Positions 4,408-21,447 are shown, counted from the first letter of the stretch. The stretch is DNA of 64,000 nucleotides from Acidimicrobiales bacterium (GCA_035530815.1 DATKTZ010000042.1:7810-71809); one strand, 5' to 3'. Notes: generated by a model not told the origin, from the letters alone. Program-made: numbers and translations.

Positions 4408-4658
4408 GTACGAGTCTGAACCGCGACGTCCGCGAGATCATCCGCGAAGAGCCGCTGATGCATCGACAGATCCTCTCGGCGCTCGTCGACGGGCCACTCA
4501 CGGTGCCCGAGATCGCCCGAGCCATCAACCAGCCCGCCGACGAGGTCGTGTTCTGGGTGATGGGGATGCGCCGCTACGCCAAACTCGTCGAGTTGCCCGA
4601 AGCCGATGACGATGGCTACTTCCAGTACGAGATCAAACAGCAAGGATCGCGAGCATGA
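4404..4658 (+). CDS. small winged-helix protein in Hdr-like operon
   Basis: 84 aa; ILSALVDGPLTVPEIARAI resembles an HTH; ATGA overlaps with both neighbours. Confidence 0.7.
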   Translation: MSTSLNRDVREIIREEPLMHRQILSALVDGPLTVPEIARAINQPADEVVFWVMGMRRYAKLVELPEADDDGYFQYEIKQQGSRA

Positions 4659-5848
4659 CCACCCAGACGATTCACGGACCCCTCACGATCGATGCCAATC
4701 TGCTCACGGACATCCAGCGCTACGGCGCACCGGAGGTGTCGGCCTGTTTCAGTTGCGGCAACTGCACCGCCATCTGTCCCATGGCGTCAAACGACGGGAC
4801 CTTCCCGCGACGGATGATCCGTTACGGGCAGGTCGGCATGAAAGACGCCCTCCTCTCGAGCAAGGAGTTGTGGTCGTGCTACCACTGCGGCCTGTGCTCA
4901 CAGAGTTGCCCCCAGGAGGCGGACCCCGGCGCCTATATGGCGGCGGCGCGGCGCTACGCCATCGCCAACTACGACAAGACGGGCATCGCGCGCACGCTCT
5001 ACACGAGACCGGTGCTCGGCTCCTTCCTCGAGGTCGCTGTGGCGGGGCTCATCGCATCTCTGCTCTACAGCGCCCACGGCGCGCGCAGCACCTCGTCGCT
5101 CGCTCTGTTCAAGTTCATACCCGAACCCGTGATCCACTGGAGCGGCATTGCGATGATTGCGGCGGCGGCACTCGTCGTTCTCGTAGGCGTCACCACGATG
5201 GTGCGAGGCATCGCACGAAACGAGGGTGTGGGGCGCTCCGCGCTCTTTGGCGGTCGCGACGCGCTCGCGTCATCGCGACGGGCCCTGTGGGAGGCGGTAG
5301 GCGTGGAGTCGCTCGGTCAGCGTCGGTTCCGAGATGACTGTGCGAACGAAAAAGAGCCCGAGCCCTGGTACCGGCGTCGCTGGCTCATTCACGCGGCGAC
5401 CATGTGGGGATTCCTCGGACTCTTGACGGCGTCGGGGCTCGACTACGGCCTCGCGTTGGCGGGGATCAGAAAGACCGGCGCGCCGGTGCCGATCTGGTAT
5501 CCGGCCCGGTTGTTGGGCACCGTAGCCGGGGTGCTCATGGTCTACGGCGTCGCCATGCTCATGCGCAATCGCCTCGCGCGTTCGGGTGAGGCCGCCAAAC
5601 ACTCGGACCAGTCGGACTGGGTGCTGCTCATCATGCTCATGGTCATCGGCGCGAGTGGGTTTCTCACCGAATCCGCCCTCTACCTGACGCACGCTCCCGC
5701 CTGGGGATACTGGATGTTCCTCTTCCACGTGAGCGTGGCACTCGAGTTGTTGGTGCTGTTGCCCTTCATGAAGTTCGCCCACGTGATCTACCGACCGGTG
5801 GCGCTGTTCTTTCAATCCCTGGCGTCGAGCACCACCAAACAGGGCTAA
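4655..5848 (+). CDS. QmoC-like protein: HdrC-type 4Fe-4S dicluster plus cytochrome-b-like membrane domain
   Basis: CFSCGNCTAICP and CYHCGLCSQSCP; about 6 hydrophobic helices with His residues (WLIHAATMWGF, FLFHV, PFMKFAHVIYRP). Confidence 0.82.
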   Translation: MTTQTIHGPLTIDANLLTDIQRYGAPEVSACFSCGNCTAICPMASNDGTFPRRMIRYGQVGMKDALLSSKELWSCYHCGLCSQSCPQEADPGAYMAAARRYAIANYDKTGIARTLYTRPVLGSFLEVAVAGLIASLLYSAHGARSTSSLALFKFIPEPVIHWSGIAMIAAAALVVLVGVTTMVRGIARNEGVGRSALFGGRDALASSRRALWEAVGVESLGQRRFRDDCANEKEPEPWYRRRWLIHAATMWGFLGLLTASGLDYGLALAGIRKTGAPVPIWYPARLLGTVAGVLMVYGVAMLMRNRLARSGEAAKHSDQSDWVLLIMLMVIGASGFLTESALYLTHAPAWGYWMFLFHVSVALELLVLLPFMKFAHVIYRPVALFFQSLASSTTKQG

Positions 5849-5966: not shown

Positions 5967-6344
5967 CTAGGACGCGGTCTGCTTGTCGTTGCGCTCGGCG
6001 ATGCGGCGGTGGATGTCCTCCATGTCGAGTTCGCGGACCTTGCCGATGAGCTCCTCGAGGGACTTGGCCGGCAGCGCGCCCGCCTCCATGTAGACAATGA
6101 CGTTGTCGCGCATCACCATGAGCGTCGGGATAGACATGATCGAGAACGCCGCGCCGAGCTCCTGCTGGGCCTCGGTGTCGACCTTGGCGAAGGTAATGTC
6201 GGGGTGAGTGACGGACGCCTTCTCGAAGACCGGGGCGAAGGCCCGGCACGGTCCGCACCATTCCGCCCAGAAGTCCACGAGCACGATGTCCGTGCTGGTC
6301 ATCAACTCGTCGAAGTTTTCCTTGGTGGCGGTCACGGTGGCCAT
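5967..6344 (-). CDS. trxA: thioredoxin
   Basis: DFWAEWCGPC active site, SIPTL; AGGAGA RBS upstream of ATG 6344. Confidence 0.93.
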   Translation of the reverse strand: MATVTATKENFDELMTSTDIVLVDFWAEWCGPCRAFAPVFEKASVTHPDITFAKVDTEAQQELGAAFSIMSIPTLMVMRDNVIVYMEAGALPAKSLEELIGKVRELDMEDIHRRIAERNDKQTAS

Positions 6345-6359
6345 AGGCTCTCCTTGCAA

Positions 6360-6377
6360 TATACCCTAGGGGGTATA
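6360..6377. promoter_or_regulatory. CsoR/CstR/RicR-family operator-like palindrome upstream of trxA
   Basis: TATACCC-TAGG-GGGTATA; perfect 7-bp arms with C/G tracts typical of CsoR-family operators. Confidence 0.7.
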
Positions 6378-6452
6378 GTACACGCTACTCCTCGCAGCGT
6401 GACACCCTCTGAAACCAACCTAGCCCGTGGGTCCCGCGCCCACCAGCCGGCC

Positions 6453-7133
6453 CTAGATCGAGAAGTCTTCCCTGGTCCAGTCGGTGCGCCGCGAGTGCTC
6501 CTCGTGGTGCACCTTGGTGACGCTCTCGAGGCGGTGCAAACGATTCGATAGCGACTCGATGTTGAGTCCCATGAGCTCGTGCTCGAGGCTCTCCTCGGGC
6601 GCCGGGGCCTGGGGGCGACGGTTGCGGGTCGTGATGCGCCCGGGAACTCCCACGACGACCGACTCGGCCGGCACCGACTTGAGCACCACCGCGTTGGCGC
6701 CGATGCGGCTGTCGTCGCCGATGGTGATCGGGCCGAGCACCTTGGCGCCCGCGCCGATGGTGACCCGGTTGCCAATGGTCGGGTGGCGCTTGCCGTGGCT
6801 CAGGCTGGTGCCGCCGAGGGTCACCCCCTGGTAGATCGTCACGTCGTGACCCACCTCGGCGGTCTCGCCGATTACCACACCCATGGCGTGGTCGATGAAG
6901 ACGCCCGCGCCGAGTTGGGCACCCGGATGGATCTCCACCCCGGTGAGCACGCGCGCGAGCGACGAACCCACGCGCGCCGCCAGCTTGGCGTGGTGATGCC
7001 AGAGCCAGTGGGTCAGCCGGTACGCCCAGATCGCGTGCACGCCCGGGTAGGTCAGCGCCACCTCCAGGGCGGAGCGGGCCGCGGGGTCGCGCGTGCGGGC
7101 CGCGTCGAGGTCGCGTCGAAGCGTCGCCAGCAT
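6453..7133 (-). CDS. cysE: serine O-acetyltransferase
   Basis: [41 protein letters not shown] hexapeptide repeats; directly follows cysK. Confidence 0.93.
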
Positions 7134-7135
7134 GC

Positions 7136-8071
<936 letters not shown>

Positions 8072-8128
8072 TGATCGGGCCATCCTTCGTCGTCGTCGAG
8101 TTCAATGCTAACGGGATCCTAAGTATAT

Positions 8129-8153
8129 ATTCCCGATGGAACAACTCAACATT
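8129..8153 (-). promoter_or_regulatory. putative Rrf2-family (CymR/IscR-like) binding box upstream of cysK
   Basis: Minus-strand 25-mer AATGTTGAGTTGTTCCATCGGGAAT resembles IscR type-1 sites; AT-rich patch upstream of cysK. Confidence 0.5.
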
Positions 8154-8228
8154 CGTGACACCATGCGGCGCCGTGTGGCGAAGCAGGGGCGCGACGTAGG
8201 TTCCGCTCACGAGCGAAGACGGCATCGT

Positions 8229-8542
8229 ATGAATGCGGTTCCGTCCATCACGAACTTCGCACTCACGGTCAGTAACCTCGAGCGCAGCGTCGCCTGGTAC
8301 GAGCGCCCGTTCGACGCGACGCTGTTGCCCGACGGGGATGCCGGTGCGTTCCACCTCGTCGTGAGCACTCGAGAGCCAGACGCTGGTCGGGCTCCACCAG
8401 TCTCGCGACCGAGCCGACGACGCGGCCTTCGCTGGGCACCCCATTGGCTTGGGCCATCTATCCTTCGGGTGCGCGAACCGCTCGGGGCTCTTGTTTCGTG
8501 ATCCCGACCACATCACGCTGGAGTTCTGCTTCCCCGTCCTGA
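8229..8542 (+). pseudogene. degraded VOC/glyoxalase-family gene
   Basis: ITNFALTVSNLERSVAWYE, then a frameshift near 8370 to QTLVGLHQ..GLGHLSFGCANR|SGLLFRDPDHITLEF; the central helix appears deleted. Confidence 0.7.
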
Positions 8543-8602
8543 TGCGTCGAGCGTGGCGCGAGGCGCGAACGCTCGTCGTGGCGGGCTCGCGCAGCGGCAC
8601 TG

Positions 8603-9325
8603 CTAGGCGAGCGCGCCCGCCAGTGAGCTCTCGACGCTGCGCCACTCGTTCAACTTGCGCAGGCAACCCCCGAGCAATCGGTCGTTGAAGCCCGCCAGGT
8701 CATTGACCCGCGGGAACTCGACCTCGGGTACCGCGACACCGAGGAAGGCGCACAGCGGCTCCCAGCCGTCGGTGAAGGACCACACGAGCAAGCGCTCGGC
8801 GGGCACGGTATCGATCACCTCCTGGTTGTAGGCGCGCATCCTCTCGGCCAGTTCGCCCGAATCGAGGTCGATCGCCTCGGCGGAGAAGAGTCCGCTCCTC
8901 TCGAGCATTCGGTGCACCAACTGAGTGAATCCCATCCACTCGGGATCGATGTGTCCGCGCGCCCTCGACAGGTCCCGCATGATCGAGTCGCCGTAGAGGA
9001 AGTCCCAGATCGTGTTCTTGATGCTCTTCGCCCACGCGTCGCCGTCGCGCACACTGAGCAGCACCTTGGCGTCGGGGTACGCCTCAAGCAGTTCGCGCCA
9101 GTAGAACGAGCCCGGCCAGTCCACGCTGGAGCCGAAGCCCGCGAGGACTTCGTTCCAATCCACCCGGCCCTCGAAGGCGTCGGTCCAGGTTGCCACGAGT
9201 TTCGTGTTCCCCAAGACCTCGTCCATGTGGTAGCAGGGCCCAAAGCCCAACAGTTCCAAGGCCACCTTCTGGGAGAGCGTTCCCGTTCGCGGCAGGCCCG
9301 CGCCGATGATCTGAAATTGCGTCAC
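8603..9325 (-). CDS. P-loop sulfotransferase (Sulfotransfer_4-like, PAPS-dependent type), paralogue 1
   Basis: IIGAGLPRTGT, PCYHM, VDWP, YPDAKVLLSVRD, GWEPLCAFL..FPRVN; GTG start with AAAGGGGA RBS. Confidence 0.85.
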   Translation of the reverse strand: MTQFQIIGAGLPRTGTLSQKVALELLGFGPCYHMDEVLGNTKLVATWTDAFEGRVDWNEVLAGFGSSVDWPGSFYWRELLEAYPDAKVLLSVRDGDAWAKSIKNTIWDFLYGDSIMRDLSRARGHIDPEWMGFTQLVHRMLERSGLFSAEAIDLDSGELAERMRAYNQEVIDTVPAERLLVWSFTDGWEPLCAFLGVAVPEVEFPRVNDLAGFNDRLLGGCLRKLNEWRSVESSLAGALA

Positions 9326-9383
9326 TCGTTCCCCTTTGAGAGTCCAATGTCGCCCAGTCTCGGGCACGCAGCTTCCAGGACTC

Positions 9384-9410
9384 TGTGACGATCCTGTGCG
9401 AAGCCTGTGA
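9384..9410 (-). promoter_or_regulatory. 11-bp periodic (T/G)CACAG direct repeats upstream of sulfotransferase 1
   Basis: Plus strand TGTG(A/C) at 9384, 9395 and 9406. Confidence 0.6.
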
Positions 9411-9439
9411 GACGTCGGCCGGCGCGATGCCTCGACGCA

Positions 9440-10375
9440 TCAGTGCGCGAAGAGTCGAGCGAAGGTGGTCGCGCCACGGGACCGGCCCAAGCGCGCCAGC
9501 CCGAGGGCGTCATCAATCGTCGCCAGCAGCGAGTAGTGATTCAGGGGCACCGCCGTGCTCGCGCCGCGCGCGAGGCCCGGCGCCACCACGAGCGTCAACA
9601 CGTGGCCTCCCCCACCGCTCGTCACAACCCTGCCGGTGCGCACGCCCGAGGCGTCGCCGTCACCCTCGTCCCACGTGACAAAGAGCACACCGCCGTCGCG
9701 CCACGCGGCGCTCGCGGTCACCTCGCGCACGAACGAGCTGAGCCACGCGGCCGCGGTGCTCGGCGCGCAGTCGTGGCCGTCGTGACACAGGTTGGGCGTC
9801 ACCCAGACGAAGCGGGGCACCGCGGACGAGCCACGGCCCAGCACGCCGGCGAGCTCGCTCATCGGTCGCAGGTGCGAGCACAACTGGTGCGAGGAGCGCA
9901 CGTTGACGAAGTAGCGAAACGGGTTGTGCTTGCTCGCGTAGTCGTTCCCGCCCCATGGATCCAAGTAGCACGAGGACGGCGCGCCCTCCAGGTAGGCGTC
10001 GAAGCTCACGTGGCGCCGCGCCAGTTGACTGAACAGATTGGGCGCGCGCACGTAGCAGGTCACGCAGTCCGAGTTGACCGCGAAGGTGCTTCCCGCGCTA
10101 AGCGCCAGGTAGTTCGGCAGACTCGGATGCGAGACGCCGTAGTAGTTCGACGCGTAGGCCCAGCGGTGCGCGAGCGCGGCCAGCGCCGGCGTCTGCATCG
10201 CCTGTTGGTAGCCGAGGTTCTCCATCACCACCTCGAACACGTGCGAGAAATGGGGCACGCCCGTCGTCGAGGCGCTCGCCGGGGCGCGGGTCCCCGGAAC
10301 CCACCACGAGAACGCCATCAGCAACGCCAGCGACCAAGCAATCCAGTGACGCCGGCGGCGAGTCAGTGAGCCCAT
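9440..10375 (-). CDS. secreted phosphoesterase (acid phosphatase/phospholipase C-like family)
   Basis: Signal peptide; HVFEVVMEN, HPSLPNYLAL, YASKHNPF, TPNLCHDGHDC, VTWDE, NHYSLLATI. Confidence 0.85.
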   Translation of the reverse strand: MGSLTRRRRHWIAWSLALLMAFSWWVPGTRAPASASTTGVPHFSHVFEVVMENLGYQQAMQTPALAALAHRWAYASNYYGVSHPSLPNYLALSAGSTFAVNSDCVTCYVRAPNLFSQLARRHVSFDAYLEGAPSSCYLDPWGGNDYASKHNPFRYFVNVRSSHQLCSHLRPMSELAGVLGRGSSAVPRFVWVTPNLCHDGHDCAPSTAAAWLSSFVREVTASAAWRDGGVLFVTWDEGDGDASGVRTGRVVTSGGGGHVLTLVVAPGLARGASTAVPLNHYSLLATIDDALGLARLGRSRGATTFARLFAH

Positions 10376-10427
10376 CTCGAGAGTCTGGAGCACGCGAGAG
10401 TCCGGGGCAAGTCGGCCCCGCGTAGGG

Positions 10428-11012
10428 CTAGGGCGTGGATAGGGCGGCAATCACCGCCGCGCGCAAGACCGCGACCGACTGCTCGAGCGCCATCTCGCCG
10501 GTAGCGAGGACGAGTTCGGGCGCGAGCGGCGCCTCGTAGGGGTTGTCCACGCCGGTCATGTTGTCGATCTCGCCGTCGCGAGTACGCCGGTAGAGGCTCT
10601 TAGGATCACGCTGCTCGCAAATCTCGAGCGACGCATCCAGGTACACCTCGAAAAAGCCCACACCTTCGTCAGCGTGGCGTGCGCGCACCGCGTCGCGCGC
10701 ACCGCGTCGCGGTGATACCAGGCTCACCACCGTGATGGCTCCCTGGTTCGAGAGCAGCAGGGCGATCTCGCCGGCGCGCCGGACGCTCTCGTCACGGTCC
10801 TCGTTGGTAAAGCCCAGATCGCGGCTGAGACCCCGGCGCAGATGGTCGCCGTCGAGGACCACCACGAACTGGGCGAGGTGATCGAATTCACGTCGCAGCG
10901 CCATCGCCGAGGTGGTCTTGCCCGCCCCGGGCAGCCCGGTCAGCCACACCGTAAGACCCGGTGGCGTCGCGTCGGCGAGCGCAGCCGTGCTCGCGGCGGT
11001 CGCCGCGAGCAC
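10428..11012 (-). CDS. cysC: adenylyl-sulfate (APS) kinase
   Basis: TVWLTGLPGAGKTT, LDGDHLRRGLSRDLGF, RDPKSLY, MTGVDNPYEAP; start codon uncertain. Confidence 0.92.
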   Translation of the reverse strand: MLAATAASTAALADATPPGLTVWLTGLPGAGKTTSAMALRREFDHLAQFVVVLDGDHLRRGLSRDLGFTNEDRDESVRRAGEIALLLSNQGAITVVSLVSPRRGARDAVRARHADEGVGFFEVYLDASLEICEQRDPKSLYRRTRDGEIDNMTGVDNPYEAPLAPELVLATGEMALEQSVAVLRAAVIAALSTP

Positions 11013-11055
11013 CTGATTGGTGCCCTCGGCGACCTCAGACCAGCGTTGCGCAGAG

Positions 11056-12555
11056 TTAGAGATGGTGCACCCCCGAGATTCCCAGCAGGTTACCCTGCGC
11101 GTCGAGCGCCTCGACCACGACGTAGGGGGGCTGTTTGGGGGCGATGATCCGGGTCTCGAAACCCTTCTTTCGCACGGTCTTGATCGCCGCGAGCTGATCC
11201 GAGGAGGCTCCGGCGAGCACCCGCCACCGGGCGACCCCGGTCGCCCCGTTCCAGCTGACGTAGATGAGGGTGTTGGCCCCCGAGCGCGCGAGCGTCACCG
11301 AGGGCGGATCGCTCGGCGTCGCGCTCCAGGGCTGCAAGAAAGCCCGGTACGAGATGAGCCCGGCCCCCACCAGGTTGCCGTCGAGGATGAGGTGCCCGTT
11401 GGCGTCGTACTCGGAGAAATACGGCTTGGCGCCCCAACCCACGAAGGTGCCCCCGTCACCCAGCACCTGCACGGTGCCCGAACTGCCCGCGACGAGCGGC
11501 GGCACGTGGATGAACGCGCGCACGAAGGTAGCGGTGCGCTTGGTCTCATCCACCTGAAGAAACAGCGCGCGTGACGGCGGGTGCACGAGGGGCGCCGACT
11601 CGTTGTCGAAGATCGAGTACGCACCCTGGCCGTTGGGGATGACGTGGTGCTGGAAGGCGAAGTGCGTGTCGGGACCCATGGAGAAGTCGCTCTTCTTGCC
11701 GCCCAGTCGCCACAGGAGCTGGCCGGTGGTGCGATGCACTTTGTAGAAGGCCCAACAGTTGCGCGACGAGATGACCAGGTTGCCGTCATCGGGGTCGATG
11801 GCGACCGAGTTGAGGTGGAAGTAGTCCCAGCGGACCGAACCGTTCCTCGAAGGCGCGACGTGAGACTCGTCGAGGTGGATGTAGCGGTCGGTACGCCACG
11901 AGAAGAGCAATTTGCCGGTCGCGACGTCCACCTCTTGGACCTCGCCGTAGAGGTAGTTGCCCTGGGTGGAGCCGCCGTAGGCCGAGAGGTTCGCGTACTG
12001 GATGCCGTAGGTCGAGAAGATTGCGGTGCCCTGGTCGGTCAGGAAGAACTCGTGCAGGTCGCCCATGAGCCCGTTGCCCGCGTGCACCGTGGCGATCGTG
12101 CGATACGAGGTGTCGGCAATGATGTAAACGCCCTCGCCGTGTCCGCCCACGACCGGGCCCTGGTACCAGGTCAGCACGGGTTGACCCTTGTAGGTTTGGA
12201 CGCGCAGATTCATCGCACGCAACGTCGGGGTGCCATTGTCCGACACGGGCCGGAACCAGACGAGGTCGCCGTTGGGGTCGATGATCATCGGGCCCTGCTG
12301 GCCCGAGCCGTCGTGGACGTCAGTCATGATGAGCCCGGGCACCGTGCCCGGGCGCTCGACGGTGATCGCGATGGGCGGTGGGCGGAAGTTCGCGATCGAA
12401 TGGTAGGCGGTCACCGGCCGGTTCTTGGTGGAACCGGTGTTGGTGCTGGCCTGGGAGCAGCTGGCGAGTGTGCTCGCCGCGACCCCCACGCCCGCCACCC
12501 CGGCGGCACCGCGAAGCAGCGTGCGACGACTGATCGCGCGTTCCTGGTCTGTCAC
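11056..12555 (-). CDS. Tat-exported arylsulfotransferase (ASST)-family lipoprotein
   Basis: SRRTLL twin-arginine signal with LASC lipobox; DLHEF, WDYFHLNS, FAFQHH, IFDN, FVGWG, SYRA, YVSWNGAT..GFET. Confidence 0.82.
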   Translation of the reverse strand: MTDQERAISRRTLLRGAAGVAGVGVAASTLASCSQASTNTGSTKNRPVTAYHSIANFRPPPIAITVERPGTVPGLIMTDVHDGSGQQGPMIIDPNGDLVWFRPVSDNGTPTLRAMNLRVQTYKGQPVLTWYQGPVVGGHGEGVYIIADTSYRTIATVHAGNGLMGDLHEFFLTDQGTAIFSTYGIQYANLSAYGGSTQGNYLYGEVQEVDVATGKLLFSWRTDRYIHLDESHVAPSRNGSVRWDYFHLNSVAIDPDDGNLVISSRNCWAFYKVHRTTGQLLWRLGGKKSDFSMGPDTHFAFQHHVIPNGQGAYSIFDNESAPLVHPPSRALFLQVDETKRTATFVRAFIHVPPLVAGSSGTVQVLGDGGTFVGWGAKPYFSEYDANGHLILDGNLVGAGLISYRAFLQPWSATPSDPPSVTLARSGANTLIYVSWNGATGVARWRVLAGASSDQLAAIKTVRKKGFETRIIAPKQPPYVVVEALDAQGNLLGISGVHHL

Positions 12556-12694
12556 TGCTTCCTCCTCGCACCAGCGGGTTCGCCCCGGGTACCTTCGACC
12601 TAGCCCCTCGGCTGTGGTCCCTCGAACATCTCGATTCCGTGTCGTGGACCCGTCGAACCGTCGGCTCGACGCGCGACACCCGCTGACACGGACG

Positions 12695-15640
12695 TCAACC
12701 CTTCACGCGAAAAGATGCCGAAGTCCCCAACACCCGTCCCTGCGCGTCGAGGGCCTCGACCTTGAAGATTTTACTCCCTGGCGCCACCGCGATGGCCGTC
12801 TCGAAGCCGGTCATGGCGTGGGTGGCAATCGGGGTGAGTTGGTTCGCGTCGGCCCCGGCGAGCACGCGCCAGGCGCTGACCAGGGTCGCGCCGTTCCAAC
12901 TCGCGTAGACCGTGGTCGCGCCGTTGCGAGTCAGCGCCGCGGCGCTGGGTGGGTAACTCGGCGTGGCGACCCACGACGCGATCTTGGTGGCGCGGTAGCT
13001 CAGATCAGGATTGGGCAGCACCGCGTCGAGCAGGAGTTGGCCCGACTTGGAGAACTCCGAGAAGTAGGGTAGGTCACCCCAGCCAACGAAGACGTTGCCA
13101 TTGGCAAGGGTCTGGGCGCTGCCCATGTAGGCGGCCGACTCGCCCTGGTGCTGGTACTGGGCAACCACGTTGGCGGTGTGAGTCGCCGGATTCAACTGCA
13201 GCGTGAGCGCACGTGAGGCGCCGGTGGCCGCCAGGTAGGTGTTGGCGCCGGTGATCTCGCAGCAGTGGTCGTCGAAGAGCGTCAGGGTGTTGTTGGGGGC
13301 GAGCATGACGTCGTGCTGCCACTCGAACTCGGCGTGGGGTCCAAAGGTGTAGCTGGAGTTCTTGCCACCGATCTGCCAGGTAATCGCGCCGGTCGCTCGG
13401 TTGACCTCGTAGGCGGCCCAGGTGTTGCGCATCGAGGTGAGGAACGTGCCGTTGCTCGCGACGTCGATCGCGTTGATGTGGTACGCGTCCCAGGGGAAGC
13501 CGTTGGTCGGCGGCGGGATCTGGGAGTCGCTGAGCGGAATGTGCTTGAGCGCGTCCCAGGTGTAGAGCAGCTTGCCCGTGCGCAGGTCGTACTCCTGGAC
13601 CGCGGAGTCGTCAAGGGCCCCGTTGATCGCCCCGCCGTACTTGACGAGGTTCATCGGCACGTTCTTGTTCGCGCTGACCCAGATGTCGTGACCGATGATG
13701 TGGATCGAATGCAGCGTCAAGATCCAGCCGTCCTTGCCACGAATGGTCGCGACGGTGCGGTAGTGCTGGTCGACCACGACGTCGGTGCCCGACTCGGTCG
13801 CGCCGGTGTTGGAGATGACGCCCTGCCACCAGGCGAGCACGGGCTCACCCTCGTAGGACTGCAGCGTGGTGTTCGACGCCACCACGTCGGTGGGTAGCGG
13901 CTTGAACCACACTGGCTGGAGCGCGTTGTTCACGATCAGGGGCCCGCTCTGGCCGACCATGGGCGGGGTCGCCAGGTTGTAGAAGTTGGCGAGCAGGATG
14001 TAGCCCGGCGCCAACTGGCTGGTCTTGGTCGCCACGTCGGTGGTGATCTTGGGCGGATGCAGGTCCGGCGCCGACACGTAGCTGTAGGTGTTGCTAGTCA
14101 CGAAGCGCCCGATGGGTGGGCCGGGTGCGCCGGCCGCCACCAGGTCGACGCCGACGAACGCGGCCACGACGATCACCACGGCGAGGGGCGCGCGCAGGCG
14201 CACCAGCGCCGCCACGGGAGTGGCCGGGCGCTCGGGCGCGGGCAGGCGCACGTAGGTGAGCACCGCGGCGATTGCGGCGAAGGCCGCACCCAACAGGTAC
14301 GCCACGCGAAAGCCGTCGGTCAGGGCGATCGACACCGATCGGTTCTGACCGATCAGGTGGCTCGAGTACTGGCTCGCCACCGAGATCAACAGGGCGATGC
14401 CGACCGCACCGCCCACCTGGCGCGACGTGTTCACCAGGCCCGAGGAGAGTCCCTCGCGCCCGGCGCCGGCACCGTGGGTGGCCGCAATGGTCGACGGGAC
14501 GATCGACAGTCCGATGCCGATCGCCACCAGCATGCCCGGCAGGATCACGTAGCCGATCGCGCTGCCGCTCGAGTTGATTCGCGCGAACAACAGCAGACCG
14601 CTCGTCATCATGACGAGGCCGCCCCCGAGCACCGCGCGCACACCGAAGCGACTCACCAAGCGCCCGGCGCTGCGCGCGGCGATCATGATGACCAGCGACA
14701 TGGGCAGGAACGCCAGCCCGGCGTCGAGTGGCGAGAGACCCAGCACCTGTTGGAGATAGAGCGAGCTCACGTACCACATTGGAAAGAGCGCGGCGCTGAA
14801 CAACAAGACGATGAGGTTGGCGTCGCGCAGGGCCCTGGTAAGCGCCTTGGGCGGAACCAACGGCGCGCTGGCGCGCGACTCGATCCAGGGGAACAGACCA
14901 AGCAGCACCAGACCAAGCACGACCGGGACCACGGTGAGCGGCGCCGCCCAACCGAGTGCACCGGCGTTGACGATGCCGTAAACGAGCACCATGAGCCCGA
15001 GGGTCATCGAAAGCGCGCCCGCCAGGTCGAAGGTGCCGCGCGACTGGTCGCGGGGACGGTCCACGATTACGAAGGCGGCGACCACGGCGGCCGCCACGGC
15101 GATGGGGGGATTGATCAACAGCACCCAGCGCCAGCCGAACCACTGGGTGATGACACCACCAAACAGCGCGCCGGCCGCGCCGCCGGCGCCGTTCATCGCC
15201 CCCCAGAGACTGATGGCGCGGTGGCGGGCCGGGCCCGGTTCGAAGCTCGACGTGATCGCGGCCAACGAGGCCGCGGCCATGAGCGCACCGCTCAGGCCCT
15301 GGACGCTGCGCGCGACGATGAGCAGCAACTGGGTGGGTGCGCTGCCGCCCACGAGCGACGCGATCGCGAAGACCAACAAAGCCGCCACGAGCGTGCGCCG
15401 CTGGCCGAAGTGGTCCGCCGCGCGTCCGCCGAGCATGAGAAAGCCCGCGAAGGCGATGGCGTAGGCGTCCACGACCCACTGGAGGTTGATCGCGCTGAAC
15501 GAGAGGCTGACCTGGATCGAGGGCAGCGCGACGTTGACGATGCTGAGATCGAGGATCACCATGAACTGCGCGACGCAACTCACTACGAGCAGCCACGCCA
15601 GCCGTCGAGTCATCCTGTCAGCACCTGATGTTGACTCCAC
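12695..15640 (-). CDS. fusion of a DHA2 (EmrB/QacA-type) MFS transporter and a C-terminal arylsulfotransferase domain
   Basis: N-half: QFMVILDLSIVNVALPSI, GGRAADHFGQRR, WRWVLLINPP, SGLVNTSRQVGG. Then an extra TM segment. C-half: DAYHINAI, FEWQHD, LFDD, FVGWG, SYRA, YASWNGAT..GFET. One uninterrupted 981-aa ORF; alternative start at 15613. Confidence 0.85.
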   Translation of the reverse strand: MESTSGADRMTRRLAWLLVVSCVAQFMVILDLSIVNVALPSIQVSLSFSAINLQWVVDAYAIAFAGFLMLGGRAADHFGQRRTLVAALLVFAIASLVGGSAPTQLLLIVARSVQGLSGALMAAASLAAITSSFEPGPARHRAISLWGAMNGAGGAAGALFGGVITQWFGWRWVLLINPPIAVAAAVVAAFVIVDRPRDQSRGTFDLAGALSMTLGLMVLVYGIVNAGALGWAAPLTVVPVVLGLVLLGLFPWIESRASAPLVPPKALTRALRDANLIVLLFSAALFPMWYVSSLYLQQVLGLSPLDAGLAFLPMSLVIMIAARSAGRLVSRFGVRAVLGGGLVMMTSGLLLFARINSSGSAIGYVILPGMLVAIGIGLSIVPSTIAATHGAGAGREGLSSGLVNTSRQVGGAVGIALLISVASQYSSHLIGQNRSVSIALTDGFRVAYLLGAAFAAIAAVLTYVRLPAPERPATPVAALVRLRAPLAVVIVVAAFVGVDLVAAGAPGPPIGRFVTSNTYSYVSAPDLHPPKITTDVATKTSQLAPGYILLANFYNLATPPMVGQSGPLIVNNALQPVWFKPLPTDVVASNTTLQSYEGEPVLAWWQGVISNTGATESGTDVVVDQHYRTVATIRGKDGWILTLHSIHIIGHDIWVSANKNVPMNLVKYGGAINGALDDSAVQEYDLRTGKLLYTWDALKHIPLSDSQIPPPTNGFPWDAYHINAIDVASNGTFLTSMRNTWAAYEVNRATGAITWQIGGKNSSYTFGPHAEFEWQHDVMLAPNNTLTLFDDHCCEITGANTYLAATGASRALTLQLNPATHTANVVAQYQHQGESAAYMGSAQTLANGNVFVGWGDLPYFSEFSKSGQLLLDAVLPNPDLSYRATKIASWVATPSYPPSAAALTRNGATTVYASWNGATLVSAWRVLAGADANQLTPIATHAMTGFETAIAVAPGSKIFKVEALDAQGRVLGTSASFRVKG

Positions 15641-15650
15641 TGAGGACTGC

Positions 15651-16373
15651 TCAGTGCCCCGCGCTGGCGCCGGCGTCCTGGGCGGTGAGCCACTCGTTCA
15701 ACTTGGCCATGCACCCACCGATCATCAGGCCACTGAAGCCGGCCGAGTCGTTGACGCGCGGGAACTCGGCCTCAGGCACCGGTACGTCGAGGAACGCGCA
15801 GAGCGGACCCCAGCCCTCGGCGACCGACCACACGAGCAGGCGATCGGCGGGCACCGTGTCGATGACCTCCTGGTTGTAGCGCTCCATGGCGCGGGCCAGC
15901 TCGCCCGAGTCCAAGTCGATCGCGTCGCTCGTCAAGAAGCCACGCCGCTCCCACATTGAGCGCATCAGGTCCGTGTAGCCCTGCCACTCCGGATCGATGC
16001 GCCCGCGCGCGCGCGAGACGTCTTCCATCAAGGAGTCGCCGTAGAGCACGTCCCAGATGGTGGTCTTCATGCTCTTGGCCCACGCGTCACCGTCGCGCAC
16101 GCTGAGCACGACCTTGGCGTCGGGGTAGGCCCCCACTAGTTCCTTGTAGTAGTACGAACCCGGCCAGTCGACGCTGGCGCCGAAGCCGTCGAAGATCTCG
16201 TGCCAGTTGGCGCGGCCCTCGAGGGCGTCGGCCCAGGTGGCCACCAACTTCGTGTTCTGCAGTACCTCGACCATGTGGTAGCAGGGATTAAAGCCCAGCA
16301 TTTCGAGGGCAATTTTCTGCGAAAGTGTGCCCGTTCGCGGCAGACCCGCACCAATTACCTTGAATTCCGTCAT
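15651..16373 (-). CDS. P-loop sulfotransferase (Sulfotransfer_4-like), paralogue 2
   Basis: VIGAGLPRTGT, PCYHM; aligns without gaps to 8603-9325; GAGAGG RBS; ends 10 bp before the MFS-ASST ORF. Confidence 0.87.
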   Translation of the reverse strand: MTEFKVIGAGLPRTGTLSQKIALEMLGFNPCYHMVEVLQNTKLVATWADALEGRANWHEIFDGFGASVDWPGSYYYKELVGAYPDAKVVLSVRDGDAWAKSMKTTIWDVLYGDSLMEDVSRARGRIDPEWQGYTDLMRSMWERRGFLTSDAIDLDSGELARAMERYNQEVIDTVPADRLLVWSVAEGWGPLCAFLDVPVPEAEFPRVNDSAGFSGLMIGGCMAKLNEWLTAQDAGASAGH

Positions 16374-16425
16374 TCACCTCTCGCTTTCGCTGAGCACCAA
16401 CGGACCCCAGTCTTCGACGACAAAC

Positions 16426-16463
16426 TGTGAGACTCCTGTGAGGCACTTGTGATTCGCTTGTGT
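16426..16463 (-). promoter_or_regulatory. 11-bp periodic TCACA direct repeats upstream of sulfotransferase 2
   Basis: Plus strand TGTGA at 16426, 16437 and 16448, TGTGT at 16459. Confidence 0.62.
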
Positions 16464-16733
16464 CGGCCATCCTAGGTCACCACCGACCGGACGATCAACG
16501 GCCGAGGCCCCAGCGGTGGCGCACGTGCACGAGTGCACATTCACGAAATCACAAATGAAGCGCGCAGTGCTGCACGAATTTCGTGAGGTGTTGTGGCCAC
16601 GTTGGGTCGAGATCCGCGACGAAGCACCGCAATGCCACCCAACTAAAGTGAACCAAGACAATCAGTCACGAGTGCTGAATGTCCGAGACGGACGGCGCGA
16701 CGACGACGCCCAGAGAGTGGTGAGCGACGCACG

Positions 16734-18317
16734 ATGGATTCTGAAGACCGCACACCGCTGCTGGGCGAGCCCGCCGACGAGCAGGCCCCCGCAACGATCA
16801 GTCGACGCCGGTTCGTGCTACGCACCCTCGGATGGTTCGCGAGCGTGGGCGTGGCCAGTGCGGTCGGCTACGAGTGGCCCCGGCCCCAGGTCGCGGCCAG
16901 TCCCGCCTCCAACGGCGCGCTCGAAGCGGTGCGCGACTTCGTCAGCCGACCCGACCTGCACCCGCCGCGCATCCGCTTCACCATCACCACCGCGGGGCTC
17001 GAGGTGCTCGGGCGCGAGGCGCTCCAGGGCGGCGACCAGCCGCGCTACATCTTCGTGTCACCGCGCACGACGGGCGAAGACCCCAGCCAGCCCGGGCTCA
17101 TGGTGCTCGACCGTCAGGGGCGGCTCATCTGGTTCGAGCCCAAGCTGACCTCATCACCCTTCGACATGAACGTCCAGACCTACCAGGGCCAGCCCCACCT
17201 CACCTGGTGGGAGGGCGACGTAGTCCACGGTCACGGTGAGGGCGTCGCCAAGATCGCCAACGAGTCCTACCGCGAGGTGAACACGATTCGTGCGGGCCAC
17301 GGCCTGCAGGTCGACCTGCACGAGTTGCGCCTCACCAACGCCGGCACGGCGCTGATCACCGCCTACGAGAACACGACCGCCGATCTCACCAGCGTCGGTG
17401 GCGCCAAGGGCGGGGCGTTGCTCGCGGGCCACGTCCAAGAGATCGACCTCGCGACGGGCGAGGTGCTGTTCGACTGGAACAGCATCGAGCACGTCGGCGT
17501 GGACGAGAGCTACCAGAAGGCACCAACCAAGGCGACCATCGCCTACGACTACTTCCACATCAACTCGATCGCCGAGGACTTCGACGGCAACCTGCTCGTG
17601 GGCGCACGCAACACCTGGGCCGTCTACAAGATCCACCGCCAGACCGGCGAGGTGATGTGGCGCATGAATGGCAAGCGCTCGGACTTCTCTATGGGGCCGG
17701 GCGCCGCGTTCTACTGGCAACACGACACCACGATGCCCGAGCCCTCACTCATGTCGGTCTTCGACGACGGCGGCTATCCCAATGAGGAGAAGCAGTCGCG
17801 CGCCCTGCTCCTGCACGTCGACACCCAGGCGATGACGGTCACCTTGAAGAAGGCCTTCGAGCACCCGGCCGGCTTCGTCGCCGCCAACCAGGGCAACGTC
17901 GAGCTCCTGGCCGACGGTCGCGTCTTCGTGGGCTGGGGCAACCAGCCCTACTTCACCGAGTTCGCCGCCGACGGCACCCTGCTCTTCGACGGCGAGTTCC
18001 CCTCGCCCGTACGTTCCTACCGTGCCTACACCCACCAGTGGGAGGGCACGCCACTCGAGGCGCCGAGCGTGGCCGCACGATCGAACAACGCCGGTGGATC
18101 GATCGTCTACGCGAGCTGGAACGGGTCGACCGAGGTGCGCCACTGGATGGTGCGCGCGGGCAAGGAGCGCAGCGCCCTCGCGCCGGTGGGATCTCAGGAG
18201 TGGACCGGTTTCGAGACCGCCATCGCGGTCAACACTCCGGGCCGCTACTTCTCAGTCACCGCACTGGACAAGGACCAAAAGGAACTCGCCACCTCGGCGA
18301 TCGTCGAGATCGCCTGA
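16734..18317 (+). CDS. Tat-exported/anchored arylsulfotransferase (ASST)-family protein
   Basis: ISRRRFVL followed by a hydrophobic segment; FVSRPDLHPP, DLHEL, YDYFHINSI, FYWQHD, VFDD, FVGWG, YASWNGST..GFET. Confidence 0.82.
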   Translation: MDSEDRTPLLGEPADEQAPATISRRRFVLRTLGWFASVGVASAVGYEWPRPQVAASPASNGALEAVRDFVSRPDLHPPRIRFTITTAGLEVLGREALQGGDQPRYIFVSPRTTGEDPSQPGLMVLDRQGRLIWFEPKLTSSPFDMNVQTYQGQPHLTWWEGDVVHGHGEGVAKIANESYREVNTIRAGHGLQVDLHELRLTNAGTALITAYENTTADLTSVGGAKGGALLAGHVQEIDLATGEVLFDWNSIEHVGVDESYQKAPTKATIAYDYFHINSIAEDFDGNLLVGARNTWAVYKIHRQTGEVMWRMNGKRSDFSMGPGAAFYWQHDTTMPEPSLMSVFDDGGYPNEEKQSRALLLHVDTQAMTVTLKKAFEHPAGFVAANQGNVELLADGRVFVGWGNQPYFTEFAADGTLLFDGEFPSPVRSYRAYTHQWEGTPLEAPSVAARSNNAGGSIVYASWNGSTEVRHWMVRAGKERSALAPVGSQEWTGFETAIAVNTPGRYFSVTALDKDQKELATSAIVEIA

Positions 18318-18336
18318 GCCGTCGCGCGCGACGTTC

Positions 18337-18489
18337 CTAGTAGCCCGGGACGTGGGTCGTGGTGGTGTTCGAGTTACCCGAGCCCGAACCACAGGCCGAC
18401 AGCACCAGCGGGCTGACCGCCAGGGCCAGCGCCGCGACGACCCTGCGCGTGCGCCGCGTCCTCGATACCGAGTTGTTCTTGCCAGGCAT
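18337..18489 (-). CDS. small lipoprotein (50 aa), not in the supplied ORF track
   Basis: Hand translation: MPGKNNSVSRTRRTRRVVAALALAVSPLVLSACGSGSGNSNTTTTHVPGY*. Basic n-region, hydrophobic h-region, LSAC lipobox. Confidence 0.68.
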   Translation of the reverse strand: MPGKNNSVSRTRRTRRVVAALALAVSPLVLSACGSGSGNSNTTTTHVPGY

Positions 18490-18607
18490 GATCACGCTCT
18501 CAATCAGGCTGCGCTTGCGGAGTGCGCGCCCGACACACTCTACCGCGCCCGATTTTCATCTCCGCGAGGCTGTTCGCGGCGAGAACCCCGGTCATAGACT
18601 CACGCCT

Positions 18608-19048
18608 ATGGCGGAACTCTTCTGGGTGGTGGTCGTACTCGTGGGTGTCGCCCTCGAGGTGCACACCAACCAGTTCGTCACCCTCTTTCTTGCCCTGAGC
18701 GGCGTGCTTGCGTTCCTGCTGGCTCTGCTCGGTGTGCCCTTCGACGTGCAGGCCCTCGTGTGGCTCGCCGCGTCGGGAGCGATGATCGCCCTCCTGCGAC
18801 CCTTCGCCGTGCGATCGTTCTCGCGTCGCTCGCGCGCGCATTCCCTGTCGCGACCGGCTGACAACGCCATGACCGGACTGCGCGGCGTGGTGGAGCTCGC
18901 GGTCGGCGACGAGGGCCACCCGGGGCGAGTGCGCATCCAGGGCGAGACCTGGCGGGCCGTCACCGAATGGCCCGACGCGCTGCCCGACGGCACCGCGATC
19001 GTGGTGCGCAAGGCCTACGGCACGACGCTCTGGGTCGAACCCGCCTGA
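18608..19048 (+). CDS. NfeD-family membrane protein (short form)
   Basis: N-terminal TM helices; C-terminal OB-fold GRVRIQGETWRA..TLWVEP. Confidence 0.85.
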   Translation: MAELFWVVVVLVGVALEVHTNQFVTLFLALSGVLAFLLALLGVPFDVQALVWLAASGAMIALLRPFAVRSFSRRSRAHSLSRPADNAMTGLRGVVELAVGDEGHPGRVRIQGETWRAVTEWPDALPDGTAIVVRKAYGTTLWVEPA

Positions 19049-19052
19049 CCGG

Positions 19053-19979
19053 CTAGCCGGGCGAGCCGGGCACGCTCTCCATCACGCTCCTGATCGCCTG
19101 GGCCGCACCGAGCAGCGCCGAGCTCTCGGCCGGGATGATGAGCTTGGTGTTCGCGCTCTCGGCGAACTTCGCCAGCGTGTCGAGTTGCAGGATCGCGACC
19201 AGCGTGGGATCGGGTGCCTGCTCCTTGATCGCGGCGTAGACCGACGCGATCGCCTGGGCGCGACCCTCGGCCTCGAGGATCAGCGCCTGGCGCCGTCCCT
19301 GGGCGCGCAGGACCGCGGCCTGCTGGGCGCCCTCGGCCTCTTTGATCGAGGCCTGCTTCTGGCCGTCGGCCACGTTCACCGCCGACTGCTGTTGACCCTC
19401 GGACTCGAGGATGCGCGCGCGCTTCTCCTGGTCCGCCTGCTTCTGGAGGGCCATGGCCTGGAGGATCTGCTCGGGGGGCGTGATCTCGAGAACCTCGACG
19501 CGGTTGATGCGCACGCCCCACTTGTCGGTGGCCTCCTCCATCTGGGTCTGCAACATGGTGCCGATGCGCTCGCGCTGGGAGAAGGCCTCGTCGAGGGTGA
19601 TGCTGCCAAAGACGGCGCGCACCGAGGTGCGCGCCAGGTTGTCCACGCTCACCAGGTAGTCCGAGTTGGTGAACAGGGCGAGTCGCACGTCGACCACCTG
19701 GGAGAAGATGGTCGCGTTGACGATCACGGCGACGTTGTCGCGCGTGATCACCTGCTGGCGATCGCCCGTGCGCGGCGTCTCGCGCACGTCGACGATCTTC
19801 ATGACCTCGATGAAGGGGACGATGAAGGTGAGTCCGGGGTTCTTCACGTCCTTGAACTCGCCGAAGCGTGTGACCACCCCCACGAAGCCCTGCTGGACGA
19901 TGCGCACCGCCTTCACGAGCCCCGCGACGACCACGAGCACGACGACCCCCGCCACAATTGCCAGAACAAGACCCATCAT
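19053..19979 (-). CDS. SPFH/band-7 (stomatin/QmcA-like) protein
   Basis: N-terminal TM; PGLTFIVPFIE, QQVITRDNV, TDKWGVRINRVE, AEG coiled-coil repeats. Confidence 0.9.
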   Translation of the reverse strand: MMGLVLAIVAGVVVLVVVAGLVKAVRIVQQGFVGVVTRFGEFKDVKNPGLTFIVPFIEVMKIVDVRETPRTGDRQQVITRDNVAVIVNATIFSQVVDVRLALFTNSDYLVSVDNLARTSVRAVFGSITLDEAFSQRERIGTMLQTQMEEATDKWGVRINRVEVLEITPPEQILQAMALQKQADQEKRARILESEGQQQSAVNVADGQKQASIKEAEGAQQAAVLRAQGRRQALILEAEGRAQAIASVYAAIKEQAPDPTLVAILQLDTLAKFAESANTKLIIPAESSALLGAAQAIRSVMESVPGSPG

Positions 19980-20124
19980 CCGCCCCCTTCACAAGAGCAA
20001 CGCGCGTTTCCGCGACCAGACAATTGCCTGTGATCGCGAGTGTAGTTGCCCTCATTTGCGGCGACCCCTTGCGGCCAATTCCCCGTTGCCTCTATGTTCG
20101 GATGCAAGGGTTGAAAGGAGTGAC

Positions 20125-21447
20125 GTGGACATCGCCACCTTTGTCGCCTCCGTCTTCGGCGGCGAGCTGCCATTTCGGGTCGAGGCCTACGACGGGAGCG
20201 TCGCCGAGGCCAGCGCCGACTCGCCCGCGCGCGAGGTCACCCTCAAGATCCTGCGCCGCGAGGCGATCACGCGCGTGCTGACCCACCCGGGCGAGCTGGG
20301 CCTCGCGCGCGCCTACGTCGCGGGCGACATTGACGTCGACGGCGACCTCGACGCCGTATTTCAACTGACGGTTCCCCCGGCGCGCCAGCTGCTGAAGGCC
20401 GCCAACGTGCGCTCGTTGCTGTCCGTGGTGGGCGCCGACGCCCTGCGCCCCCTGCCGCCACCGCCCATCGAGGCTCGCCAACGCGGCGTGCTGCACAGCC
20501 GCGGACGCGACCGCCAGGCGATCTCGCACCACTACGACGTCTCGAACCGCTTCTACGAGTTGGTGCTCGGTCCCTCGATGACCTACTCGTGCGCCGTATT
20601 CCGATCGCCCGAGGAGACCCTCGAGGCCGCCCAGACGCGCAAGGTCGACCTGGTAGCGAGAAAACTCGACCTGAAGCCGGGTATGCGACTGCTCGACGTG
20701 GGCTGCGGGTGGGGCGCGATGGGCATCCACGCGGCCACCCACTACGGTGCGTCGGTGGTGGGCGTCACGCTGTCCGAGCCCCAGCGGCGCTACGCCACCG
20801 AGCGGGCCAAACTCGCCGGGGTGAGCGACCTGGTCGAGTTCCGGGTCCAGGACTACCGCGACGTGAGCGACGGGCCCTTCGACGCCATCAGCTCGATCGG
20901 CATGTCCGAGCACGTGGGCCGACGCTCCCTGGGCGCCTACACCCAGAACCTCTTCGACCTGCTCGTGCCCGGCGGGCGCTTCCTCAACCACGCGATCGGC
21001 CGGCCGGTCTCGTTCGACGAGGACCCCCAGCCCTCGCGCGGCTCCGAGCTGAACCGCCAGATCCAGATCGCCCTGGGTATGCGCGGCCCCTCCAAGACCG
21101 GCAGCCAGTTCATCGATCGCTACGTCTTTCCCGACGGCGAGTTGCACGAGGTGGGCACGCTCGTCTCGATGTTCCAGGCCCACGGCTTCGAGGTGCGCCA
21201 CCTGGAGAGCCTGCGCGAGCACTACGCGCTGACCCTGCGCCGGTGGGTCGACAACTTGGTGAAGCGCTTCGATGAAGCGGTCGAGGAGGTCGGCGAGCAG
21301 CGGGCACGGGTGTGGCGGCTGTACATGGCGGGCTCGGCGGTGGCCTTCGAGCGTCACCACCTCGAGATCCACCAGATCCTGAGCGTGCGACCCCACGAGG
21401 GGGCGAGCACCATGGCCCTGCGCAACGACTTCGAGCCCACCTCCTAG
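20125..21447 (+). CDS. cfa: cyclopropane-fatty-acyl-phospholipid synthase family SAM methyltransferase
   Basis: ISHHYDVSNRFY, MTYSCA, LLDVGCGWG, SIGMSEHVG, YVFPDGEL, HYALTL; GAAAGGAG RBS before GTG. Confidence 0.88.
   Translation: MDIATFVASVFGGELPFRVEAYDGSVAEASADSPAREVTLKILRREAITRVLTHPGELGLARAYVAGDIDVDGDLDAVFQLTVPPARQLLKAANVRSLLSVVGADALRPLPPPPIEARQRGVLHSRGRDRQAISHHYDVSNRFYELVLGPSMTYSCAVFRSPEETLEAAQTRKVDLVARKLDLKPGMRLLDVGCGWGAMGIHAATHYGASVVGVTLSEPQRRYATERAKLAGVSDLVEFRVQDYRDVSDGPFDAISSIGMSEHVGRRSLGAYTQNLFDLLVPGGRFLNHAIGRPVSFDEDPQPSRGSELNRQIQIALGMRGPSKTGSQFIDRYVFPDGELHEVGTLVSMFQAHGFEVRHLESLREHYALTLRRWVDNLVKRFDEAVEEVGEQRARVWRLYMAGSAVAFERHHLEIHQILSVRPHEGASTMALRNDFEPTS

Follow-up and report, generated by a model that had tools for sequence, protein, structure and literature searches.

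The window analyzed here is a stretch of 64,000 nucleotides (G000:C42:7810-71809) from an Acidimicrobiales metagenome-assembled genome (MAG) of 2.46 Mb (67% GC, 66 contigs, 86% complete). Between positions 8603 and 18489 it carries a block of eight genes: two sulfotransferases (STs) of the Sulfotransfer_4 family, the adenosine 5'-phosphosulfate (APS) kinase CysC, three proteins with an arylsulfotransferase (ASST) domain, one of them fused to a transporter of the major facilitator superfamily (MFS), a phosphoesterase, and a very small prolipoprotein ending in tyrosine. Reading-frame analysis and Pfam/NCBIfam scans placed every gene of the block where a first-pass annotation of the same DNA had located it, and the profile searches suggested there, for Sulfotransfer_4, Arylsulfotran_2, APS_kinase and MFS_1, all gave matches. 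The eight genes occupy frames of high third-position GC (0.83-0.90).

Six of the genes form a leftward operon on the minus strand. Its first gene, ST_B (15651-16373; PF17784, E 2e-62), encodes a predicted cytoplasmic ST and ends 10 bp before the gene of the MFS-ASST fusion, a probable DHA2-type protein of 981 residues (12695-15640; MFS_1 E 2e-47, Arylsulfotran_2 E 6e-35). These are followed by ASST_A, a lipoprotein ASST with a twin-arginine translocation (Tat) signal (11056-12555; PF14269, Arylsulfotran_2, E 3e-46), by CysC (10428-11012; APS_kinase E 4e-54, TIGR00455), by a shortened phosphoesterase with an export signal (9440-10375; PF04185, E 2e-26) and, as the last gene, by a second predicted cytoplasmic ST, ST_A (8603-9367; PF17784, E 4e-60). 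The Tat-signal ASST_B (16734-18317, plus strand; PF14269, E 7e-57) diverges from the operon. The prolipoprotein gene (18337-18489, minus strand; 50 codons) converges on ASST_B, with 19 bp between the two stop codons. The Pfam scan found no polyketide synthase (PKS), nonribosomal peptide synthetase (NRPS) or glycosyltransferase within the 10-kb block, as had been noted before.

The intergenic region between ST_B and ASST_B (16374-16733) contains repeats and a palindrome, and probably holds the promoters of both transcription units. Two 11-nt direct repeats containing CTGTGAG, at 11-nt spacing (16425-16446), and a GTGCAC-type palindrome (16519-16536) may be operator sites. An Rfam scan of positions 8000-19500 gave no riboswitch or other RNA match. 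An antisense open reading frame (ORF) of 80 codons in the gap between the ASST and MFS genes was rejected as a true gene on codon statistics.

ST_A and ST_B scored 203.8 and 211.3 bits, respectively, against Sulfotransfer_4 (Pfam cut-off 22.8). Both carry the 5'-phosphosulfate-binding loop GAGLPRTGTLS. Neither has a signal peptide, which supports a cytoplasmic location. The two proteins are close paralogues, and a genome search identified them as the sole Sulfotransfer_4 genes of this genome. The best matches of ST_B in the PDB, aligned over the full length, were 9KF1/9KF2 (E 3e-40), SgdX2 (8Y9P) and a schistosome SULT (4MUA).

CysC scored 192.1 bits against the TIGR00455 equivalog model, above its cut-off of 138.7. 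ATP sulfurylase had been expected to be encoded outside the block, and CysN and CysD were indeed found on contig C2, together with CysH, a reductase of either the APS or the PAPS type; a search of the same genome for the other ATP sulfurylase, Sat (PF01747), gave no match. The CysN protein has no kinase domain, which supports the window CysC as the only APS kinase seen, no genome-wide search for that family having been made.

The ASST domains scored 158.6 bits (ASST_A), 193.6 bits (ASST_B) and 121.6 bits (fusion) against a Pfam cut-off of 27. The N-terminus of ASST_A reads SRRTLLRG followed by LASC, a Tat lipoprotein signal with a weak match to the TIGR02811 Tat-region model, and that of ASST_B contains the twin-arginine motif SRRRFVL; the two Tat signals and the single lipobox reported in the first-pass annotation were thus recovered. 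In the fusion protein, MFS_1 covers residues 22-414 (162 bits) and Arylsulfotran_2 residues 594-873. The EmrB-subfamily model TIGR00711 gave 213.8 bits, just below its cut-off of 230.2.

Hydropathy plotted along an alignment of 20 fusion proteins gave 15 peaks, with a Lys/Arg-rich N-terminus and Lys/Arg-rich alternate loops. Because of the 15 peaks and the positive-inside loops, the protein is predicted to have its N-terminus inside, 14 MFS helices followed by one extra transmembrane helix (approximately 14126-14209, minus strand), and its C-terminal ASST domain (approximately 12695-14082, minus strand) outside the cell. The Tat signals and this 15-helix topology support an extracytoplasmic location for all ASST domains of the window.

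A profile built from 13 ASSTs matched the PDB entries 9KF4 and 9KF6 with E 1e-157 and the Escherichia coli AssT (3ELQ) with E 0.002. AssT works by a ping-pong mechanism via a catalytic histidine. In the 3ELQ alignment the His of FHINS corresponds to H356, the Arg of ARN to R374 and the His of WQHD to H436. These three catalytic residues were invariant in all 13 ASSTs, including every copy in the window and a further copy on contig C52. The next-ranked match, 4P04, showed the same residues throughout this stretch apart from an Asn in place of His436. ASST_B by itself matched 9KF6/9KF4 with E 1e-95; a preprint describes 9KF6 as an unpublished Streptomyces ASST with three conserved histidines. 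The neighbouring accession codes suggest that 9KF1 (an ST) and 9KF6 (an ASST), both unpublished Streptomyces entries, come from one project; they might be the caprazamycin enzymes Cpz8 and Cpz4.

In a quick tree the ASST domains of the fusions formed one clade (SH-aLRT 100), and the flanking ASST paralogues grouped by gene position. ASST_B grouped with the ASST that adjoins a tiny lipoprotein gene in another Acidimicrobiales locus, L057. The C52 copy, the fourth ASST of the genome (C52:22908-24611, equivalent to L171:8909-10612; 567 residues), is 62% identical to ASST_B and is surrounded by housekeeping genes: a Mur-ligase-like gene and the genes for DNA polymerase III delta' and topoisomerase I. 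It has no tiny lipoprotein gene in its neighbourhood.

The prolipoprotein encoded beside ASST_B consists of a signal sequence, an LSAC lipobox, a Gly/Ser/Asn/Thr linker, a TTTT run and the C-terminal sequence HVPGY, leaving a predicted mature part of 18 residues. The third-position GC of the frame is 0.815, and the synonymous share of codon differences within the family was 0.29, compared with 0.09-0.21 in the antisense frames; these codon statistics favour the frame as coding. On the opposite strand, a long NfeD ORF (18359-19048) overlaps the gene. Its NfeD domain occupies residues 169-228 and the hydrophobic part begins at MAELFW (position 18608 approximately), so that the true start of NfeD probably lies downstream.

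In order to find relatives of the lipoprotein, the loci of 160 fusion homologues and the window (161 sequences) were searched for small lipobox-containing ORFs whose Gly/Ser/Thr-rich tail ends in Tyr. Such an ORF was present in 103 of the 161 sequences, giving 97 distinct proteins, all 97 with a terminal Tyr. With the last residue left free in the filter, the only homologues in these sequences that ended otherwise were copies cut at contig ends. The family shares a signal sequence, an AGC or AAC lipobox with a Cys that is invariant in the alignment, a Ser/Thr linker that varies in length, and a Thr run. The tail is of two types: HKHxSKPAY in Solirubrobacterales and xPGY in Acidimicrobiales, including the window. 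Lipoprotein status is predicted from these features.

In public gene calls, a separate and independent profile search found 177 matches, all of them unnamed or misnamed. Among the best 120 of the 177, 118 ended in Tyr (PAY 92, PGY 14, PSY 7) and 118 had a lipobox; of the two proteins lacking the terminal Tyr, one appears to be truncated and the other to have a frameshift. Neither Pfam nor NCBIfam had a family that matched the lipoprotein above its cut-off. Weak matches to NF058595, 'invert_tail' (17-27 bits, cut-off 37), probably reflect the lipoprotein signal and the amino acid composition. The protein Atlas gave only small unnamed actinobacterial clusters for this ORF, with values of 0.82-0.85, a lead only.

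The lipoprotein gene is closely linked to one standalone ASST gene. Both were present in 81 loci, the adjacent ASST alone in 6, the lipoprotein alone in 8 and neither in 37 (Fisher p 1e-18), so that 81 of the 87 loci with this ASST also carry the lipoprotein. Of 102 cases, 91 had the two genes in convergent orientation, the median distance to the aligned 3' end of the ASST gene being 87 bp. The genome of the window has one copy of the lipoprotein gene.

Homologues of the fusion are numerous: at least 1992 were found (60-72% identity), species-representative genomes gave at least 592 matches, most of them in Solirubrobacterales and some in Acidimicrobiales and Gaiellales, and metagenome contigs gave 557. 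The window fusion groups with those of Acidimicrobiales MAGs. Soil and peat metagenomes are the source of the relatives, which have up to six ASST paralogues. In a phylum sample of 300 genomes, some of them unpublished, in which two candidates were scored for each genome, only MFS-only or ASST-only proteins were seen and no close full-length homologue. Among the nearest genomes, neither PF14269 nor PF17784 was detected in G173, of the same genus and 99% complete, or in three of four genomes of the same order, and the block is therefore regarded as an accessory island in this genome. DNA synteny of G173 with the window was limited to short matches of 70-74% identity.

The neighbourhoods of the fusion were compared by clustering the ORFs of the 160 relatives' loci and scanning the representatives against Pfam; counts were taken from the 80 loci with at least 6 kb on either side, for neighbours within 6-10 kb of the fusion. 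Further ASSTs were found in 65 of the 80 loci (two or more in 46), a sulfatase in 36 and a type III PKS in 10. Taken together with the lipoprotein data, this comparison identifies a recurrent core made of a standalone ASST, the tiny Tyr-ended lipoprotein and the MFS-ASST fusion. The first-pass annotation had listed the lipoprotein as a side item; it is rather part of that core. The sulfatases of Solirubrobacterales lie between ASST paralogues (for example L028:16638-18623 and L007:14824-16764) and have a Tat signal (DRRTFLKG) and a CxPxR formylglycine motif.

An ST gene lies directly upstream of the fusion in loci of the Acidimicrobiales and Gaiellales types. The closest syntenic relative, L086 (70% identity), has the tiny lipoprotein, an ASST, an ST, MFS-ASST and an ASST between housekeeping genes; it does not share CysC, the phosphoesterase, ST_A or the cysK-cysE neighbours with the window. 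The string CysC, type III PKS, ST, ASST, MFS-ASST, ASST occurs in L012, L050 and L075, and in L055 with no CysC detected; the shorter string type III PKS, ASST, MFS-ASST was seen in another eight loci, and the string MFS-ASST, CysC, ST, ST, type III PKS in L091 and L095. A type III PKS is also present in L179 and L182, among others.

Upstream of CysC, type III PKS and ST, a trio of genes is conserved in the Solirubrobacterales loci L012, L050, L055 and L075. Judged by the look of their N-termini alone, the products are an ATP-grasp/succinyl-CoA-synthetase-beta-like protein (approximately 405 residues), a CoA-binding alpha-like protein (approximately 350 residues) and a ferredoxin-like protein (83 residues). 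This trio might supply a starter CoA ester.

The phosphoesterase covers positions 97-355 only of the PF04185 profile. A full-length relative, a lipoprotein of 521 residues, follows the module in another locus (L096:7461-9026); the window protein is about one third shorter and does not have the stretch after VVMEN, which includes RSFD. Across the 160 loci the only other match was weak (L091, 24% identity); the gene recurs in just one or two other loci. The first-pass description of a secreted phosphoesterase stands as to export, given RRRRHW and a hydrophobic stretch at the N-terminus, and has to be amended as to the enzyme: the shortened protein may be inactive or repurposed. A role in removing 3'-phosphoadenosine 5'-phosphate was considered and rejected in view of the export signal and the truncation. 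We take PF04185 to belong to the alkaline-phosphatase superfamily, like the sulfatases at the loci of other relatives.

Outside the block, ST_A is immediately followed, on its own strand, by cysK and cysE, with a gene for thioredoxin close by; this group (5967-8083) adjoins a set of Hdr/Qmo-like flavoprotein and Fe-S genes (1-5848). On the other side, an SPFH/HflK-like gene (19053-19979, minus strand) overlaps by approximately 300 bp an ORF of 593 codons for a CMAS-family methyltransferase (19666-21447, plus strand), the start codon of which is probably later because the domain begins at residue 278 only.

We propose that the block encodes a sulfation pathway in two steps, one on either side of the cytoplasmic membrane, with the C-terminal Tyr of the tiny lipoprotein as the leading acceptor, a proposal that we hold to be about evenly balanced between right and wrong. 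CysDN, encoded elsewhere, would make APS, and CysC would convert it to 3'-phosphoadenosine 5'-phosphosulfate (PAPS), as expected from the homology of these proteins. ST_A and ST_B would then place sulfate on a small phenolic carrier, which in the relatives is most likely made by the type III PKS, for instance a pyrone or an alkylresorcinol. The DHA2-type MFS would export the aryl sulfate and deliver it directly to the ASST domain that it carries at its C-terminus, outside the cell. The fused ASST, ASST_A and ASST_B would take the sulfuryl group on the catalytic His and pass it to extracytoplasmic acceptors. Transfer to the terminal Tyr of the lipoprotein would produce a lipid-anchored peptide ending in sulfotyrosine; the Thr-rich linker, or glycans on it, are possible further targets.

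Because the phenol of tyrosine has a high pKa, transfer to it from sulfates of the pyrone or nitrophenyl type is favoured thermodynamically, which makes a Tyr acceptor plausible. Its plausibility also follows from the sulfation of tyrosine peptides by ASSTs in vitro (PMC13426309), from the Cpz8/Cpz4 precedent and from the documented cassette of type III PKS, ST and PAPS genes. The proposal builds on domain identities, catalytic residues, topology read by sequence rules, conservation and gene linkage, from which we infer PAPS use, a carrier, its export and sulfation of the lipoprotein. It extends a trans-membrane relay put forward in the first-pass annotation. The predicted cytoplasmic STs, the predicted outside ASSTs with intact catalytic residues and the Cpz-like gene sets of relatives support that relay in part; its carrier, acceptor and transport direction are conjectural. 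The lipoprotein might also have another part in the same pathway, as a ribosomally made, lipid-anchored 'swinging-arm' aryl carrier with a flexible Ser/Thr linker: the Tyr would be loaded at the exporter-fused ASST and would hand the sulfuryl group to the paralogous surface ASSTs, which would then sulfate different envelope or environmental targets. We find this variant rather doubtful. If true, it would represent a protein-tethered cosubstrate for extracellular group transfer, for which we know of no described counterpart.

Several observations weigh against the split pathway with a Tyr acceptor. Enzyme activity, transport direction and the sulfated product are all predicted from sequence, and the phosphoesterase has no explained role in the relay. 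Rather than an acceptor, the lipoprotein could serve as an anchor, a plug or a regulator. Co-localisation of ST and CysC with the fusion, which the first-pass annotation had suggested looking for as a recurrent feature, was seen in a minority of loci: a Sulfotransfer_4 ST in 12 of the 80 and CysC in 8 of the 80. No type III PKS (PF02797) or other gene for making a carrier was found in the genome of the window, at its 86% completeness. Among 101 Solirubrobacterales genomes, Sulfotransfer_4 occurred in 20 and ASST in 22, the association being weak (7 with both, 13 with ST only, 15 with ASST only, 66 with neither; odds ratio 2.4, p 0.10), so that ASSTs in general are not tied to a Sulfotransfer_4 ST. 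The fusion-bearing genomes of this sample, on the other hand, G301, G362 (unpublished) and probably G312, all have Sulfotransfer_4. In favour of the pathway, five of five Solirubrobacterales genomes in which the fusion locus has no ST carry one to three Sulfotransfer_4 genes elsewhere, and eight of these nine genes adjoin CysC, type III PKS or ASST. A final point against the pathway, the Tat-exported Cys-type sulfatases at 36 of the 80 relatives' loci and the cysK-cysE pair here, would fit the scavenging of organosulfates by a relay running in reverse. Surface ASSTs would move sulfuryl groups from aryl sulfates of the environment to a carrier, either the tethered Tyr or a small phenol; the MFS would import this carrier or a sulfatase would free the sulfate, and the sulfur would go to cysteine synthesis. 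The position of cysK and cysE directly downstream on the same strand, with thioredoxin nearby, agrees with such a route, and several ASST paralogues could broaden the range of donors. We nevertheless judge it quite improbable: the MFS is probably of the DHA2 efflux type, CysC and the type III PKS would be superfluous and yet recur with STs, and the cysK-cysE neighbourhood is not kept in L086.

Two further explanations keep the outward direction and dispense with the lipoprotein as acceptor. The block could be an ordinary cassette for tailoring and export of a natural product, a diffusible metabolite made elsewhere, with the MFS as exporter or self-resistance pump and no surface target. Cpz6/Cpz8/Cpz4 provide a precedent, a cassette of type III PKS, ST and PAPS genes makes sulfated adipostatins (PMC12135136), and about one eighth of the relatives' loci have a type III PKS. 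However, neither the block nor L086 contains scaffold genes, every ASST is predicted to be extracytoplasmic and the lipoprotein is tightly coupled to its ASST; the fusion is 60-70% identical across classes and the paralogues keep their positions, unlike what is found in variable biosynthetic clusters. Such a cassette seems unlikely to us. Alternatively, surface ASSTs might use the exported donor to sulfate toxic phenolics or antibiotics outside the cell, the lipoprotein merely tethering or regulating ASST_B. ASSTs accept many phenols, their natural acceptors being unknown (PMC13426309), and up to six paralogues in relatives from soil and peat would suit a detoxifying function, but the invariant C-terminal Tyr, the conserved basic-Pro-x-Tyr tail and the coupling of the lipoprotein gene to one particular ASST clade would be left unexplained; we assign a low probability to this possibility as well.

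According to a 2026 review (PMC13426309), it is poorly understood which substrates bacterial ASSTs use in nature and what physiological roles they have. The module suggests a source for the ASST donor, namely a cytoplasmic PAPS-dependent ST with a dedicated exporter, and an acceptor, the conserved peptide tyrosine on the tiny lipoprotein. If this is true, it would indicate how molecules come to be sulfated by cells on the outer side of the membrane, a place without available PAPS, would define a new class of sulfotyrosine lipopeptide on abundant uncultured soil bacteria, and would offer matched sets of donor, enzyme and acceptor for PAPS-free biocatalytic sulfation. Its reach would extend over soil Actinomycetota, with fusion relatives in at least 592 species-representative genomes. 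Full-text searches found no paper on the MFS-ASST fusion or on the tiny lipoprotein, in agreement with the first-pass view of the arrangement as a candidate undescribed system.

The nearest known system is the two-step sulfation by Cpz8 and then Cpz4 in the biosynthesis of caprazamycin (PMC4257720, PMC6731281). The caprazamycin/A-90289 clusters combine a type III PKS (Cpz6), a PAPS-dependent ST (Cpz8/LipE) and a PAPS-independent ASST (Cpz4/LipB), and a putative pair of the latter two types is encoded here. Homologues of ST_B and ASST_B form a Streptomyces pair of known structure (9KF1, 9KF6), and relatives of the window cluster place a type III PKS beside ST and ASST. Unlike in caprazamycin biosynthesis, the window block is not accompanied by a liponucleoside or other scaffold cluster, the flanks of L086 are housekeeping genes and the genome itself, 86% complete, gave no type III PKS match. 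Moreover, the ASST copies of the window are all predicted to be exported, one of them through fusion to a DHA2-like MFS with an extra transmembrane helix, and the tiny Tyr-ended lipoprotein is the conserved partner.

E. coli AssT (3ELQ) is likewise an extracytoplasmic beta-propeller ASST, and the equivalents of its H356, R374 and sulfohistidine-forming H436 are kept here. The similarity is only distant (profile E 0.002), PF14269 being a better model for the window proteins than PF05935; the window ASSTs are predicted to be exported by Tat or by fusion, and their genes are clustered with those of a predicted PAPS-dependent ST, CysC and a transporter.

The 'sulfation cassette' of the Streptomyces davaonensis adipostatins contains type III PKS, AdpST and PAPS genes (PMC12135136). 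As here, a PAPS-making gene stands beside that of a PAPS-dependent ST (putative in the window), and the type III PKS is shared with the relatives of the window cluster. The adipostatin cassette has no ASST, fused exporter or lipoprotein, and its sulfated phenolic lipid is an end product, not a donor. In Xanthomonas, RaxST is a cytoplasmic PAPS-dependent tyrosyl-protein ST, and its substrate RaxX is secreted by a type I system. RaxX and the tiny lipoprotein are alike as ribosomal peptides with a tyrosine as the sulfation site, proposed in the case of the lipoprotein; unlike in the RaxST/RaxX system, sulfation would here take place outside the cell, by an ASST, and on a lipid-anchored peptide.

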